Positions 1 to 5,317 of a DNA stretch of 5,317 nt are shown here, piece by piece. The stretch lies in the IMG/VR virus record IMGVR_UViG_2734482586_000010, one strand, 5' to 3'. Each line of letters opens with the position of its first letter. Within the stretch, counting starts at the first letter, position 1. The translations under genes were made by a program, and so were the position numbers. Below the pieces are notes generated by a model. The model was not told where the DNA came from, searched no databases, and was given only the letters and a program-made list of their open reading frames with translations. This DNA is from a virus (Duplodnaviria; Heunggongvirae; Uroviricota; Caudoviricetes).

Positions 1-1500
1 ATACGCTATACCGTTAAAAATAATGGGCGGAATAATAATCTGGCGGTCAAAGTTATGATCATCGCTTATGGTGACTGTAACCGTCCCGTTTGGTGTTTCC
101 GTGTTACCCCACGTACCAGCCTGTTTCGGAAATGATTTGGATACAGCTTTAACGAAGTCACCTCTGACCTGAGTCGCCTCCAGCATGCCCTTAATCGTAC
201 AGTTTTCATTTACCGTGACATTGTTGAGCGTCCCGGCGTTCGCATTCACACTGCCACTGATATCCGCATTTTTAGCGGTCAGCTTTCCGTCCGGAGTCAG
301 GGAAAATGCCGATGGATTTCCACCGCTGGTAATGGTGGGGGCCGTCAGGCGTTTCAGGAACACGTCGTTCATGAATATCTGATCGCCCTGACCAACAAAC
401 ATCGGTTTTGTGTTGCCATTCGCAGGATTAACCATCGCAATCCTGTCCGCCGCCAGCAGCACCTGACTCTGCATGCCGTCAGGGGTGTTCTCAATACCGG
501 CACCAATACCCGCGATATAAAGGCGTCCGTCCTGCATCTGCTGCAGCTTCACAGCCCACATGCTGTTCAGGTTATTATTTGTATCAACCTGAACCTTCTG
601 TATCTGCTGAATTGCCGCACTCTGGTCTTCCAGTTTCTTATTGACGGTCTGCGTGATTTCATTGCTGACATCCGTAATGGACGTCCTGATTTCAGCCAGG
701 TCAGGCGCAAGCTGACCGTTATCAATCTGCGTCCACAGCTCCTGAGCCAGATGGGTTTTCCCTATCTCGCCTTTGAAAAAATCCAGATAACCGGATGCAT
801 CATCACTCGGCTGACCAACAGCCTCCACGAATGCCGATTTGCCAACGGTGTTCACACTGCGGATATAAAAGTAATAATCATGGCCCGGTTTGATATTGAT
901 ACTGGCGGCTATCCAGTACAGCGCCGTGCCAAGATAGCGTGCTGTGGTTTCAACCTGCCTGATATCCGCAATCCGCTTTTCCGAGAACCAGAACTCAAAC
1001 TGTACCGTCGGATCATAAACCGCAAGATGCGGCGTGGCGGTTATCTGAAAATAGCCCGGCGTCAGCTCAATCCGCGACAGCGCTGCCGGTGCGGCAATCC
1101 GGAACGATACCGACGCCGGATCGCCCTGCTGCCCCCACGCATTTACTGCCCGGACTGTCAGCCTGTAGTTCCCCAGCGCCAGTTGTGTGAAGCGGTAAGT
1201 GGTTTCCGTCGTCCGGGCCGTGCTGACCAGCCGCTCACTGCCGTCATCCGCTGTTACGGTCAGACGGAGCAGGAAGCTCACGCCCTTCACCACCTTCGGC
1301 GTGTCCCAGCGCGCCAGCACCTGATATTCCCCGCTGTCTGCGGTGACTTCGGCAGTCAGGTGCTGCACCGCTGGCGGCGTGACACCATTCACCGTGCCGC
1401 TCTGGTCGCCGTCAAAGTGCGCCCCGTTATCCACGATGGCTTCTTTTTCCGGCACATGCTGCACGGCGGTGATGGCATACGTGCCGTCGTCGTTCTCACG
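1..1500 (-). CDS. J: J C-terminal-proximal segment, 3' partial; the frame continues beyond window position 1
   Basis: Hand translation of the minus strand in the frame with codon first bases at 1500, 1497 ... 3 gives [20 protein letters not shown] at 1500..1441, [40 protein letters not shown] at 180..61 and [12 protein letters not shown] at 60..25. These match lambda gpJ from memory. The track lists no stop-terminated minus-strand ORF in 1..1388, consistent with one open frame running off the window edge. The frame differs from the segment upstream of the gap. Confidence 0.85.
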
Positions 1501-1501
1501 G

Positions 1502-1737
1502 NNNNNNNNNNNNNNNNNNNNNNNNNNNNNNNNNNNNNNNNNNNNNNNNNNNNNNNNNNNNNNNNNNNNNNNNNNNNNNNNNNNNNNNNNNNNNNNNNNN
1601 NNNNNNNNNNNNNNNNNNNNNNNNNNNNNNNNNNNNNNNNNNNNNNNNNNNNNNNNNNNNNNNNNNNNNNNNNNNNNNNNNNNNNNNNNNNNNNNNNNNN
1701 NNNNNNNNNNNNNNNNNNNNNNNNNNNNNNNNNNNNN
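1502..1737. other. Assembly gap: run of 236 N inside the J coding sequence
   Basis: Uninterrupted n characters from 1502 to 1737. The J frame on the two flanks differs, so the gap length is arbitrary. Comparison with lambda gpJ from memory suggests roughly 95 codons are missing. Confidence 0.99.
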
Positions 1738-2872
1738 CAGATTTCAATGACATCGCCCGGCACATGGCGAAGCCCTTCTGCGCCCACGCTGAAGTCCACG
1801 GTCTGCGTCTCCAGCAGTTCCGTTTTAATCAGCCACAGCCCGGCGCGGTGTGCCTGCCCCCGGCTGGTACAGCCAAAGGCATCCATCTTCGTGACGTTAC
1901 GACCGTAACGGACAATGGCCTGCGTATCCTCCACAAGCTCTGTCGCCGTCTCCCAGCCGTTATCCGGGTCAATCCAGTTCACCTCAACGGCATTATGGCG
2001 GTCTTTCAGGGCGCTGAAACTGTAGCGGAACGGCGCGCCATCATCCGGCATCACCACATTACTGCGGTTATAGGCCCACACCTTATCCGACTGTCGGTCC
2101 TGCACGAACGTCAGCGTCTGCCCGTTCCATACCGGCATACAGCGCATCGCCGAGCAGAAATCACTGAGCACATCCCACGCCTTGCGCTGTGTGGTCAGCC
2201 AGGCATTACAGGTGATGCGCGGCTCCGTGCTGCCAAAGCCGTCCGGCACCGACTGGTCACAGTACTGGCCGATGACATACAGCGCCCATTTATCCACATC
2301 TGCCGCACCAAGACGTTTCCCCATGCCATAGCGCGGATGGGTCAGCATATCCCACAGACACCAGGCCATGTTGTTGCTGTATGCCGGTTTTAACGTTCCG
2401 TCCCAGATACCGCTGTATTGCCGCGTCTGCGGATTATAGTTCGACGGCACCTGCAGAATGCGCCCGCGAAGATGATAATTACGGCTCACCTGCTGGCTGC
2501 CGAACTGTTCCGAGTCCACCTGCACACCGAAGGTAAAGCGCAGACGGTCGATGTTTGCCGACGTGATGGTGCGGGTGATCGGCGTGTCATATTTCACTTC
2601 CGTACCCAGCACCGTCTCGGAGCCGGAGGATTCAAACCCCTCCGGCGGTGTCTGCTCCTGCTCACCTGCCCGGAACACCACCGTGACACCGGAGATATTG
2701 GTATTCCCCTCACTGTCCAGCACCGGCGTACTGTTCAGCAGCACGCTTTTTAACCCATCCACCGGACCTTCAATCGGCCCTTCGCTGATGACATCGATCA
2801 CACTCAGCAACTGCGTGGATTTCAGGTTGTCCTTCGCTTCACGCGGGGTATGCCCCTTACTGCTGCCTTTAC
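1738..2872 (-). CDS. J: J internal segment in a +1 frame relative to the N-terminal segment: a second, diverged copy of J codons ~2-119 fused directly to mid-J sequence (VDSEQFGSQQVSRNYHLRGRILQVPSNYNPQTRQYSGIWDG...GLRHVPGDVIEI), running into the N gap
   Basis: Minus-strand translation reads (G)KGSSKGHTPREAKDNLKSTQLLSVIDVISEGPIEGPVDG...RLRFTFGVQ, then VDSEQFGSQQVSRNYHLRGR... with no stop until the N run. The ORF track shows this as 1389..2810 from an internal TTG. The mid-J portion matches lambda gpJ from memory. Confidence 0.8.
2521..2872. repeat. Direct repeat copy B (~352 bp), duplicate of the J 5' coding region; about 96% identical to copy A
   Basis: By-eye alignment of 2522..2872 with 2991..3341 at a constant offset of 469 bp shows about 15 substitutions and no indels. 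Similarity ends at 2873 (n) on one side and at the GGTGT(G/A)CAG motif near 2521 on the other. Confidence 0.9.
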
Positions 2873-3345
2873 NTACCCTTAATGGTGATGTCTTTTTCCG
2901 TCACCCAGCCACCGTTACGCTGTATCTGAACCAGCAGGCGAACTTCAGACGGATTCCTGTCTCCCTTTGAGGTGGTTTCCACCAGTGCCTGTACACCGAA
3001 GGTAAAACGCAGTCGGTCAATGTTTGCCGACGTGATGGTCCGGGTGATCGGCGTGTCATATTTCACTTCCGTACCCAGCACCGTCTCGGAGCCGGAGGAT
3101 TCAAATCCCTCCGGCGGTGACTGCTCCTGCTCACCTGCCCGGAACACCACCGTGACGCCGGAGATGTTGGTATTCCCCTCACTGTCCAGCACCGGCGTAC
3201 TGTTCAGCAGCACGCTTTTTAATCCATCCACCGGACCTTCAACCGGCCCTTCGCTGATGGCATCGATCACACTCAGCAGCTGCGTGGACTTCAGGTTGTC
3301 CTTCGCTTCGCGCGGGGTATGCCCCTTACTGCTGCCTTTACCCAT
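2869..3345 (-). CDS. J: Tail tip / host specificity protein J, N-terminal segment (codons 1-158), ending at an ambiguous base and an immediate stop
   Basis: ATG at 3345-3343 is preceded by GGAG with 8-nt spacing. Translation MGKGSSKGHTPREAKDNLKSTQLLSVIDAISEGP...RLRFTFGVQALVETTSKGDRNPSEVRLLVQIQRNGGWVTEKDITIKG matches the lambda gpJ N-terminus from memory. The frame then hits the codon containing n (2873) and a TAA. The 60-nt gap from the I stop is as in lambda. Confidence 0.88.
   Translation of the reverse strand: MGKGSSKGHTPREAKDNLKSTQLLSVIDAISEGPVEGPVDGLKSVLLNSTPVLDSEGNTNISGVTVVFRAGEQEQSPPEGFESSGSETVLGTEVKYDTPITRTITSANIDRLRFTFGVQALVETTSKGDRNPSEVRLLVQIQRNGGWVTEKDITIKGX
2990..3341. repeat. 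Direct repeat copy A (~352 bp), the in-context J 5' coding region (codons ~2-119)
   Basis: Same alignment as copy B. Copy A is contiguous with the J start codon and ribosome-binding site and continues in frame into J codons 120-158 (2873..2989). Confidence 0.9.
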
Positions 3346-3353
3346 TCGTCATG

Positions 3354-3357
3354 CTCC
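3354..3357 (-). promoter_or_regulatory. Shine-Dalgarno sequence (GGAG) for J
   Basis: Minus-strand sequence ...tttatGGAGcatgacgaATG places GGAG 8 nt upstream of the J ATG at 3345. Confidence 0.55.
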
Positions 3358-3405
3358 ATAAACGATAAAACCGCCCGGAGGCGATTTCACATAAAACATT
3401 TTGCA

Positions 3406-4077
3406 TCAGCGACCAATCACCACAACCTGACCACCGTCCCCTTCGTCTGCCGTGCTGATCTCCTGAGATACCACACGTGACCCCACGCGCATTTCACCAT
3501 ACAGAACAGGCATAACATTGCCCTGGGCAACCATGTTATCCAGTGAGGAGAAATAGGTGTTCTGCTTACCGTTATCCGTTGTCTGTGTGCGGGGAGTTCT
3601 GGCTTTCGGTGCCAGCATCTGAGCCACACCGCCGAGCACCATACTGGCACCGAGAGAAAACAGAATGCCGGTCATACCACCGGCACCAATGGCAGCCCCC
3701 CATGCTGCAAGGGTGGCTCCGGCGGTAAAGAATGATCCGGCAATGGCGGCTGCTCCCAGGACAATCTGGAATACACCACCTGACTTGGCCCCGGCGACTC
3801 TGGGAACAATATGAATCACAGCGCCGTCAGGCAGAGCCTCATGTAACTGTGCCGTTAATCCGGACGTGCTAACATCCTGCCCGGCAATACGCACCTGATA
3901 CCAGCCGTCGCTCAGCTTCTGACGAAACGCAGGGAGCTGTGTGGCCATCGCCCGGATGGCTTCGGCACCCGTTTTCACACGAAGGTCGATGCGGCGGCCA
4001 AATCGTTGCAAATCCCCGTAAAGGCAGATGCGTGCCATGCCCGGTGACGCCAGAGGGAGTGTGTGCGTCGCTGCCAT
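3406..4077 (-). CDS. I: Tail tip assembly protein I (lambda gpI-like); N-terminal domain ending in Gly-Gly, followed by a glycine/alanine-rich hydrophobic segment
   Basis: 223-codon ORF MAATHTLPLASPGMARICLYGDLQRFGRRIDLRVKTGAEAIRA... ending VVVIGR with TGA at 3406-3408. Near-identical to lambda gpI from memory and the same length. Start overlaps the 3' end of K by 103 nt in a different frame, as in lambda. Gly-Gly at residues 100-101 (3775..3780) precedes GGVFQIVLGAAAIAGSFFTAGATLAAWGAAIGAGGMTGILFSLGASMVLGG. Confidence 0.92.
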   Translation of the reverse strand: MAATHTLPLASPGMARICLYGDLQRFGRRIDLRVKTGAEAIRAMATQLPAFRQKLSDGWYQVRIAGQDVSTSGLTAQLHEALPDGAVIHIVPRVAGAKSGGVFQIVLGAAAIAGSFFTAGATLAAWGAAIGAGGMTGILFSLGASMVLGGVAQMLAPKARTPRTQTTDNGKQNTYFSSLDNMVAQGNVMPVLYGEMRVGSRVVSQEISTADEGDGGQVVVIGR

Positions 4078-4718
4078 TTGTCGGTGTACCTCTCTCGTTT
4101 GCTCAGTTGTTCAGGAATATGGTGCAGCAGCTCGCCGTCACCACAGTAAATGGCGGCATGATTCGGCACCGATGAACCAAAGCAGCACAGCAGCACATCG
4201 CCCGGCTGCGCCGCTGACAACGGCACCTGATACAGCCCTGTGGCCTCCAGATTATCCAGATAGAGATTCTGACCGTGACGCCACCAGTCATCCTCACGAT
4301 GAAAATCCGGCATCTCAATCCCCGCCAGATGGTAAGCATCCCGGAACAGCGTGTAACAGTCCGTCACCCCGTGCTCAAAGCGCCGCCCGGTAAGATGTGG
4401 CACACAGCGGAACTTGTGAATCGCCCCCCGGCAGACCAGCCACCACGGCAAATCACTCTGCACCTGCAGCCGCCGGTCGGCCTCACTCAGCCAGGGCAGA
4501 CCACCGGGGTGGCTGTGGACCAGTGCCACAATCTCACCCTGCATCTCTGCCTGCAGCCAGTCTTCCGGCGACATACGGAAATACGCCTCCGGCTCACCGG
4601 AGATATTCACGCAGGGGAAATATCTTTCCCCCTCCGGCGTTCTTACCACGAAGCCGCACGACTCCGCTGGAGCACATCGCCGGGCGTGCGCCAGAATCGC
4701 TGATTCTGTCTCTGTCAT
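3975..4718 (-). CDS. K: Tail tip assembly protein K (lambda gpK-like); N-terminal JAMM/MPN metallopeptidase domain plus C-terminal NlpC/P60 cysteine peptidase domain
   Basis: 247-codon ORF MTETESAILAHARRCAPAESCGFVV... Complete JAMM motif is present: E19 in the E-x-C-G context, then H68-S-H70-x7-S78-x2-D81 (HSHPGGLPWLSEAD). NlpC/P60 triad candidates are C121 (TDCYTLF), H187 (NHAAIY) and H199. ATG at 4718 is 5 nt after the L stop. The classical lambda annotation starts 48 codons later (Met49, codon 4574..4572), but the E-x-C-G element lies upstream of that, so the longer ORF is favoured. Confidence 0.9.
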   Translation of the reverse strand: MTETESAILAHARRCAPAESCGFVVRTPEGERYFPCVNISGEPEAYFRMSPEDWLQAEMQGEIVALVHSHPGGLPWLSEADRRLQVQSDLPWWLVCRGAIHKFRCVPHLTGRRFEHGVTDCYTLFRDAYHLAGIEMPDFHREDDWWRHGQNLYLDNLEATGLYQVPLSAAQPGDVLLCCFGSSVPNHAAIYCGDGELLHHIPEQLSKRERYTDKWQRRTHSLWRHRAWHASAFTGICNDLAAASTFV

Positions 4719-4723
4719 GGGAT

Positions 4724-5317
4724 TTACTGCGAAAGTTTGTTAATGGAAAGGAAGCCGCCAAAGTTGCCGACGTTATTGCGAAACTTACAGCCACTCAGGC
4801 ATTTGCTGCATTTATCCTTCGTGATGTCGGACGTTGGCTGGTCATATTCATCCGCGACCGCCGGACCGTGATAACCGCACTCATCGCCGCGATAGGTCCA
4901 GGTGCAGGTGTTGGCCAGCATGATACGTCCCGGAAAAACAGCGCCATCTGTTTCCGTCGGCGTGGACAGTACAAAAGAGGCACTCACCGCGCTCAGTTCG
5001 CTGCACTGCTCAATGCGCCAGCGGCTGATCACCTCCTGCTCCGGATCGGCGTCACTGTTTCCGTTGACGAAGTTCACCGCATCCAGAAAACGGGCGTAAA
5101 CCTTACGCCGGACCACCGTTCCGCCGACCAGACTCTGTAGATCTTCCGCCATCCCGGTGACCATACCGTACAGGTTAGAAACCATCAGCGTGGGGCGCGT
5201 ACTGGTGCCTTTGCCATTCAGTTCAAAACCACTCCCCTGAATGGGATACGGCTGATACTGTCGCCCCTGCCAGGTGACCGGCTCACCTTTTTCGTTCTGC
5301 TCATTACAGAAAAAATA
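4724..5317 (-). CDS. L: Minor tail protein L (lambda gpL-like); 5' partial, about 35 N-terminal codons lie beyond the window end
   Basis: Minus-strand frame is open from 5317 (reads YFFCNEQNEKGEPVTWQGRQYQPYPIQ...) through MVSNLYGMVTGMAEDLQSLVGGTVVRRKVYARFLDAVNF...CSKCLSGCKFRNNVGNFGGFLSINKLSQ to TAA at 4724-4726. This matches lambda gpL (232 aa) from memory. The stop lies 5 nt upstream of the K start, as in lambda. Confidence 0.9.
   Translation of the reverse strand, partial: YFFCNEQNEKGEPVTWQGRQYQPYPIQGSGFELNGKGTSTRPTLMVSNLYGMVTGMAEDLQSLVGGTVVRRKVYARFLDAVNFVNGNSDADPEQEVISRWRIEQCSELSAVSASFVLSTPTETDGAVFPGRIMLANTCTWTYRGDECGYHGPAVADEYDQPTSDITKDKCSKCLSGCKFRNNVGNFGGFLSINKLSQ

Follow-up and report, generated by a model that had tools for sequence, protein, structure and literature searches.

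The Sanger assembly pipeline runs VelvetOptimiser/Velvet with a k-mer of 66–90% of read length, followed by 16 iterations of SSPACE and 120 of GapFiller in which reads already mapped as proper pairs are excluded, after which short contigs are dropped (PMC5320598). Its authors describe SSPACE and GapFiller as greedy and capable of false joins, and the Shigella sonnei assemblies from this pipeline average 405 contigs (PMC5320598). GapFiller closes a gap on two conditions, an overlap of the extensions of 10 nt or more (the default) and a fill that departs from the estimated gap size by no more than 50 nt, and it settles allelic positions by majority ratio (PMC3446322). Aberrant J scaffolds can be found in the public record. 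CXEW01000190.1, another S. sonnei J scaffold whose accession style resembles that of the present one, contains three single-n joins between J segments that overlap, are inverted or are repeated; in one case, the 30 nt checked on each flank of the n are exact reverse complements. Several "J proteins" in databases that derive from draft assemblies also carry internal duplications or deletions.

The window analyzed here, 5317 nt in length, is the entire record CWZY01000209.1 (GCA_001253735.1), an S. sonnei draft scaffold; an exact look-up of its truncated J product (157 residues + X) returned this single record. The supplementary table of Page et al. 2016 (PMC5320598) assigns CWZY01000001–397 to Shigella sonnei (study ERP001362, sample ERS432305, run ERR572943), which documents directly that the record comes from a scaffolding and gap-filling pipeline. 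The minus strand of the scaffold encodes a tail module of the lambda type. Minor tail protein L (4724..5317, PF05100) is cut off by the scaffold end and is followed by tail protein K (3975..4718, JAB and NlpC/P60 domains), tail assembly protein I (3406..4077, Pfam Lambda_tail_I) and the start of J at 3345, the same L-K-I-J order as in closed genomes. The exact I protein, named by NCBI as an S. sonnei tail assembly protein, is carried by 605 contigs, among them the chromosome of S. sonnei CFSAN030807 (CP023645.1). Downstream of these matching L, K and I reading frames, the assignment to gpJ is borne out by domain content: the product of the first copy of the J start contains FNIII-A_GpJ (PF24801, 67.7 bits), and that of the middle piece contains Phage-tail_3 (PF13550, 139.6 bits) with a truncated PF24801 (29.1 bits).

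A repeat search matched 2519–2872 to 2988–3341, shifted by 469 nt, with 15 mismatches and no indels, far above chance expectation. The first-pass annotation had described these copies (2990..3341 and 2521..2872) as differing at about 15 positions with no indels, as out of frame with each other and as differing by only three protein-altering changes. All of this held: we counted 15 mismatches in 352 nt, of which 12 are synonymous and three non-synonymous (A29V, V35I and S76T), the offset of 469 equals 1 modulo 3, and the repeat extends slightly further, to 2519/2988. The n at the breakpoint and the N gap within J were likewise correctly noted; ambiguous bases are limited to the n at 2873 and the 236 N at 1502–1737. 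The first J frame, put at 158 codons, has 157 defined codons, codon 158 being the one that holds the n. Below, the copy at 2988–3341 is called copy A and that at 2519–2872 copy B.

Alignment to the intact J of complete genomes gave the order of J segments in the scaffold, all on the minus strand: nt 1–472, n, nt 5–358, nt 665–1445, the N run, and nt 1728–3228. This is not the simple tandem duplicate first described. Copy B (J nt 5–358) jumps directly to nt 665, skipping 306 nt (102 codons, J nt 359–664), and ~180–190 nt of J (nt 473 to about 652–664) occur nowhere in the scaffold. The upstream piece (2874..3345, J nt 1–472) includes copy A and ends at the single n (2873), where the pieces end in ...AAGGGTA and start with GTAAAGG... 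with no detectable overlap. We take a single n to be the mark that SSPACE/GapFiller leaves between adjacent pieces whose overlap was not detected; a literature search returned no statement of this convention. The N run (1502..1737, 236 N) stands for 282 real nt (J nt 1446–1727), so that its length only estimates the gap and it breaks the frame. The duplicated piece is bounded by the n at 2873 and by the N run from 1737 downward, and is therefore a scaffold piece that was separately placed or separately built. The strings that span the junctions of the rearranged layout read ...ATTAAGGGTA(A)AGGCAGC... / ...ATTAAGGGTAAAGGCAGC... and ...TTCGGTGTGCAGGTGGACTCGG....

The identity of the pieces to closed genomes set the middle piece apart. 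Against CP023645.1, positions 2876–5317 are 99.9% identical and positions 1–1501 are 100% identical, whereas the middle piece is 98.9% identical over 1738–2530 and 95.8% over 2519–2872. Because identity is lower only between the two gap marks, the anomaly is confined to one separately built piece. In CP023645.1, J is intact (1165 aa, full GpJ domain set), as it is in CP022459.1 and AAUYHQ010000006.1. We compared the scaffold position by position with two alleles that are roughly 96% identical to each other, the resident S. sonnei prophage allele (J1) and the allele of Escherichia phage ev243 (LR597639.1; J2). Copy B is identical to the J of ev243 and to six other intact copies over all of its 354 nt and has 15 mismatches to J1. 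The upstream piece, including copy A, is J1 with a single mismatch (J nt 471); this penultimate base of the piece (2875) is a J2-type T, as in ev243. The suggestion that both copies derive from functional J alleles is thereby upheld, copy A being the resident S. sonnei J and copy B the ev243 J, both directly seen intact elsewhere. Two other S. sonnei J paralogues were considered as the source of copy B and set aside, since they are only 94–98% identical to it, against 100% for ev243.

The remainder of the gene is a mosaic of the same two alleles, visible directly in the mismatch counts. Immediately downstream of the aberrant junction, J nt 653–675 (2508..2530) are J2-type, with four mismatches to J1 and none to ev243. 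The core of the middle piece (1809..2433, J nt 750–1374) is J1, with no mismatch to J1 and 24 to ev243; the positions between this core and the neighbouring parts are the same in both alleles, and the whole of 1795–2507 (713 nt) is 100% J1. At the gap-side end of the middle piece (1738..1794, J nt 1389–1445), the allele is again J2 (five mismatches to J1, none to ev243), and the piece stops one base before the J1/J2 polymorphic site at nt 1446. Beyond the N run, 1..1501 (J nt 1728–3228) is J1, with 1501/1501 positions identical to CP023645.1 and 78 mismatches to the J of ev243. The allele thus switches to J2 at both piece ends that meet at the n and where the middle piece borders the N run; the edge of the downstream piece, beyond the run, is uninformative, the alleles being identical there up to nt 1775. 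These switches track the edges of the pieces and not any biological boundary, which is the pattern that majority-vote extension would be expected to leave if J2 reads dominated the pool. The longest runs in which J1 and J2 are identical measure 107 nt (nt 550–656) and 83 + 89 nt (nt 1495–1673); both scaffold gaps fall there, and such runs are where a de Bruijn assembler would break.

We conclude, with a probability of about 0.82, that the apparent duplicate is a chimera of two functional J alleles produced during scaffolding and gap filling, and not a structure of the genome. The reads of the isolate would have held two J alleles: J1, from a lambdoid prophage common in S. sonnei chromosomes, and J2. 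Velvet would have built the J1-specific stretches and broken at the long runs common to both alleles, and SSPACE would have put the pieces in order. GapFiller, working from a pool without the properly paired reads already assembled, may then have extended every gap edge with J2-type sequence. A false closure on the 12-nt TCGGTGTGCAGG would have joined J2 nt 358 to nt 665 (hereafter junction 2), and the other join, lacking an overlap, would have remained as the single n (junction 1). We infer the order of these software events, as well as the absence of reads spanning the junctions.

The assembly artefact raised by the first-pass annotation, a chimeric or collapsed draft involving two related lambdoid prophages, is thus retained as a chimera of two alleles. 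Its second half needs revision, because in other isolates J2 lies on contigs of N15-like linear phage-plasmids and not in a classical integrated prophage. The exact J protein of ev243 occurs on about 100 contigs, whose NCBI names include S. sonnei. On six contigs of 23–81 kb, the J DNA is intact and identical to that of ev243, and J adjoins genes for the protelomerase TelK (PF22853/PF20849/PF16684) and the partition proteins ParA (PF01656/PF13614) and SopB (PF18090). A 47.6-kb linear plasmid record of E. coli, pCAVP367-48, has one mismatch in the 354 nt of copy B. Judged from this sequence linkage, the isolate behind the scaffold may itself carry an N15-like element with J2, which would then share the cell with J1 and not stem from a contaminant. 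N15-derived plasmids are present at about five copies per cell. The location of J2 on N15-like phage-plasmid contigs in other isolates suggests that J2 is probably multicopy here as well, and such a copy number would explain why J2 won each extension vote.

The sequence at junction 2 fits a closure on overlap, and it is also where the strongest competing explanation arises. The junction lies directly on a 12-nt exact overlap, TCGGTGTGCAGG (2519..2530, minus strand; plus strand CCTGCACACCGA), common to J2 nt 347–358 and 653–664. Within nt 1–1500 of the ev243-type J (J2), no other 12-mer is repeated and no exact internal repeat is longer; the whole gene holds two repeated 12-mers, this one being inexact in J1. 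The overlap exceeds the 10-nt minimum for closure, a value that is the GapFiller default, as PMC5320598 does not give the exact GapFiller and SSPACE parameters for ERR572943. A de Bruijn collapse at a shared k-mer was considered as the cause and rejected, since only 12 nt are shared against a k of 66–90% of read length; an overlap-based merge fits junction 2 better.

An alternative that we regard as unlikely, though it is the most serious one, holds that the event is half real: the ev243-like element of this isolate would have an in-frame 306-nt deletion in J, arisen by slippage between the 12-nt repeats, and only its placement within the chromosomal J and the join at the n would be scaffolding errors. 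Junction 2 is J2-type on both sides and sits in frame on the longest exact repeat, as such a deletion would, and in vivo, deletion through microhomology would likewise tend to use the longest internal repeat, which counts against an artefact. Moreover, where extension proceeds k-mer by k-mer with a long overlap, the jump could be made only with supporting reads. Against this, J is intact and identical at the DNA level in all six other J2 contigs examined, and the deletion would take most of a folded domain, the 306-nt skip leaving only profile positions 3–36 of 126 of the FNIII-A domain of GpJ. Junction 2 was also absent from every collection searched. No spanning match occurred in 5426 complete E. 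coli genomes with a 44-nt probe, each half of which alone is below the megablast word size, and a degenerate pattern matched nothing in the GTDB species representatives, IMG/VR or the JGI metagenomes, whereas a control pattern for the normal sequence matched at least 120 viral contigs in IMG/VR. At the protein level, FTFGVQ followed directly by VDSEQF occurred in none of the best 120 hits of each search (379-aa and 123-aa queries), hits that apparently extend only to about 1.75x the query length, so that a full-length J with the deletion would escape them. The related idea that the skip is a natural short variant of J was discarded, the best complete E. coli matches aligning in two pieces that span 306 nt more and the junction probes returning nothing. 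Finally, a false closure on the 12-nt overlap already satisfies the default closure rule of GapFiller and accounts for junction 2 with no real deletion.

The ends at the n bear on a further alternative, in which the whole arrangement is real. Illegitimate recombination between the J of the chromosomal prophage and that of a co-resident N15-like phage-plasmid, at microhomologies of 7 and 12 nt, would have yielded J1(1–157) + J2(3–118) + J(221–end), and the n would be a failed merge of truly adjacent contigs. If true, the encoded tail-tip protein would stay in frame and contain an N-terminal segment twice. At the n, the two ends fall in register within the 7-nt repeat GGGTAAA (J nt 3–9 and 468–474), a register that random ends would reach by chance in ~0.25% of cases (p about 0.0025; a post hoc test). 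Merging the pieces on the shared GTA would give an in-frame fusion, and once merged they would keep the frame across both junctions. Both features count against an artefact, and for this reason we keep a small probability for a real recombinant J, which we nevertheless consider improbable. The allele returns to J1 downstream of junction 2 and then to J2 beside the N run, following the edges of the pieces and no biological boundary. Had reads covered a real junction, re-extension would also be expected to close it, given an overlap of 10 nt or more. In closed S. sonnei chromosomes whose flanks are identical, J is intact, and neither junction was found elsewhere in the collections searched, the merged junction 1 being absent from the 5426 complete E. 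coli genomes (40-nt probe) and from IMG/VR (pattern). The upstream piece stops immediately before a 10-nt repeat, AAACCACCTC (nt 368 and 473), and this hints at overlap-driven software behaviour.

Very improbable is the alternative offered by the first-pass annotation, a genuine duplication that inactivated J in a cryptic prophage, which we took as a tandem duplication in a decaying prophage followed by divergence of the copies: two head-to-tail copies 469 nt apart, the second frame-shifted, do have that appearance, but copy B matches a different, widespread allele at 100% and copy A the resident one, so that neither arose from the other; their 12 synonymous and three non-synonymous differences are pre-existing J1/J2 differences and not changes acquired after duplication; the two thus do not go back to one parental copy at the locus; the missing ~180–190 nt and the skipped 306 nt are incompatible with an A-X-X-B layout; and the junction holds an n and is not seen in related finished genomes.

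The value of reading the scaffold as an assembly chimera is solely cautionary. The Sanger pipeline and similar ones have produced thousands of public draft genomes; chimeric scaffolds arise in them at multi-copy phage genes such as J, and chimeric "proteins" then enter databases. Studies of J diversity, host-range evolution or prophage decay in Shigella and E. coli should ignore structures that touch N/n in such drafts. As a by-product, the scaffold hints at an ev243-like N15-type phage-plasmid beside the chromosomal prophage in this S. sonnei isolate.

Compared with known systems, both copies in the scaffold are the 5' end of the J gene of lambda gpJ (TipJ), with L-K-I-J synteny, FNIII-A_GpJ and Phage-tail_3 domains and 95–100% DNA identity to annotated gpJ; the scaffold differs in that its J is in pieces of two alleles, whereas intact J genes elsewhere encode 1165 aa. 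With ev243 and the N15-like phage-plasmids, it shares J2-type stretches identical to the J of ev243, but J is intact there and only fragments of J2 appear here. From the false joins of Velvet assemblies improved with SSPACE and GapFiller, the scaffold differs in nothing essential, sharing with these the pieces bounded by N/n, the edges that carry a paralogous allele and the junction on an overlap of 10 nt or more.

At two of the piece boundaries, the scaffold adjoins an exact repeat of 10 nt or more. The upstream piece, which carries J nt 1-472, I, K and L, ends at window 2874, directly before the 10-nt repeat AAACCACCTC, a sequence found in J at nt 368-377 and again at nt 473-482. Junction 2 (window 2519-2530), where J jumps from nt 358 to nt 665, lies on a 12-nt repeat.

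Comparable structures were observed in other public records. CXEW01000190.1 (locus L008), another Shigella sonnei scaffold whose accession is similar in style, contains three single-n joins within J (at 1542, 2391 and 4529), and the J segments that they connect are overlapping, inverted and repeated. The n at 2391 lies at the centre of a perfect inverted repeat, 30 nt on its left being reverse-complementary, without mismatch, to 30 nt on its right. Public "J" proteins from draft assemblies also carry internal duplications (e.g. database proteins P0001 and P0002) or internal deletions (P0117 and P0151), and such proteins are now present in nr and UniRef. Together with P0015 and P0016, which are likewise rearranged by internal duplication or deletion, they probably belong to the same class of assembly chimera as the window J. 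Near-identical lambda-type J and I fragments (P0024, P0128, P0188 and P0215) are publicly labelled as Streptococcus pneumoniae, Mycobacterium tuberculosis, Aeromicrobium or Proteus mirabilis, labels that most likely stem from cross-contamination of draft assemblies.

Gene prediction on the window appears to have been misled by the N run (1502-1737) and the n at 2873. In the middle piece (1738-2872), the frame that truly encodes J is absent from the public gene calls of the window record. These calls include a 209-aa ORF antisense to J (window 1764-2393, plus strand; public call in L006, 2925-3554). The start of I differs among gene callers, giving 190, 210 or 223 aa depending on the record; read from its first ATG (4077), the I ORF encodes 223 aa, and 103 nt of it (window 3975-4077) are shared with the end of K.

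Compared with three S. sonnei genomes, the upstream piece differs only at window 4182 and 4086. The base at 4182 is shared with phage ev243 and the linear Escherichia coli plasmid record pCAVP367-48, and that at 4086 with pCAVP367-48; both differences may be either true strain SNPs or bleed-through from a second element. The ev243-type J, represented in the window by copy B (2519-2872), occurs intact and identical at the DNA level on contigs of 23-81 kb (loci L131-L136, with L010 listed alongside; e.g. 16239-19498 in L132), and S. sonnei is one of several NCBI names attached to the exact protein. On these contigs the tail genes are followed by genes for ParA, SopB and protelomerase (TelK); they therefore look like N15-like linear phage-plasmids, which, as carriers of the ev243-type J, may be common accessory replicons of S. 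sonnei and E. coli.
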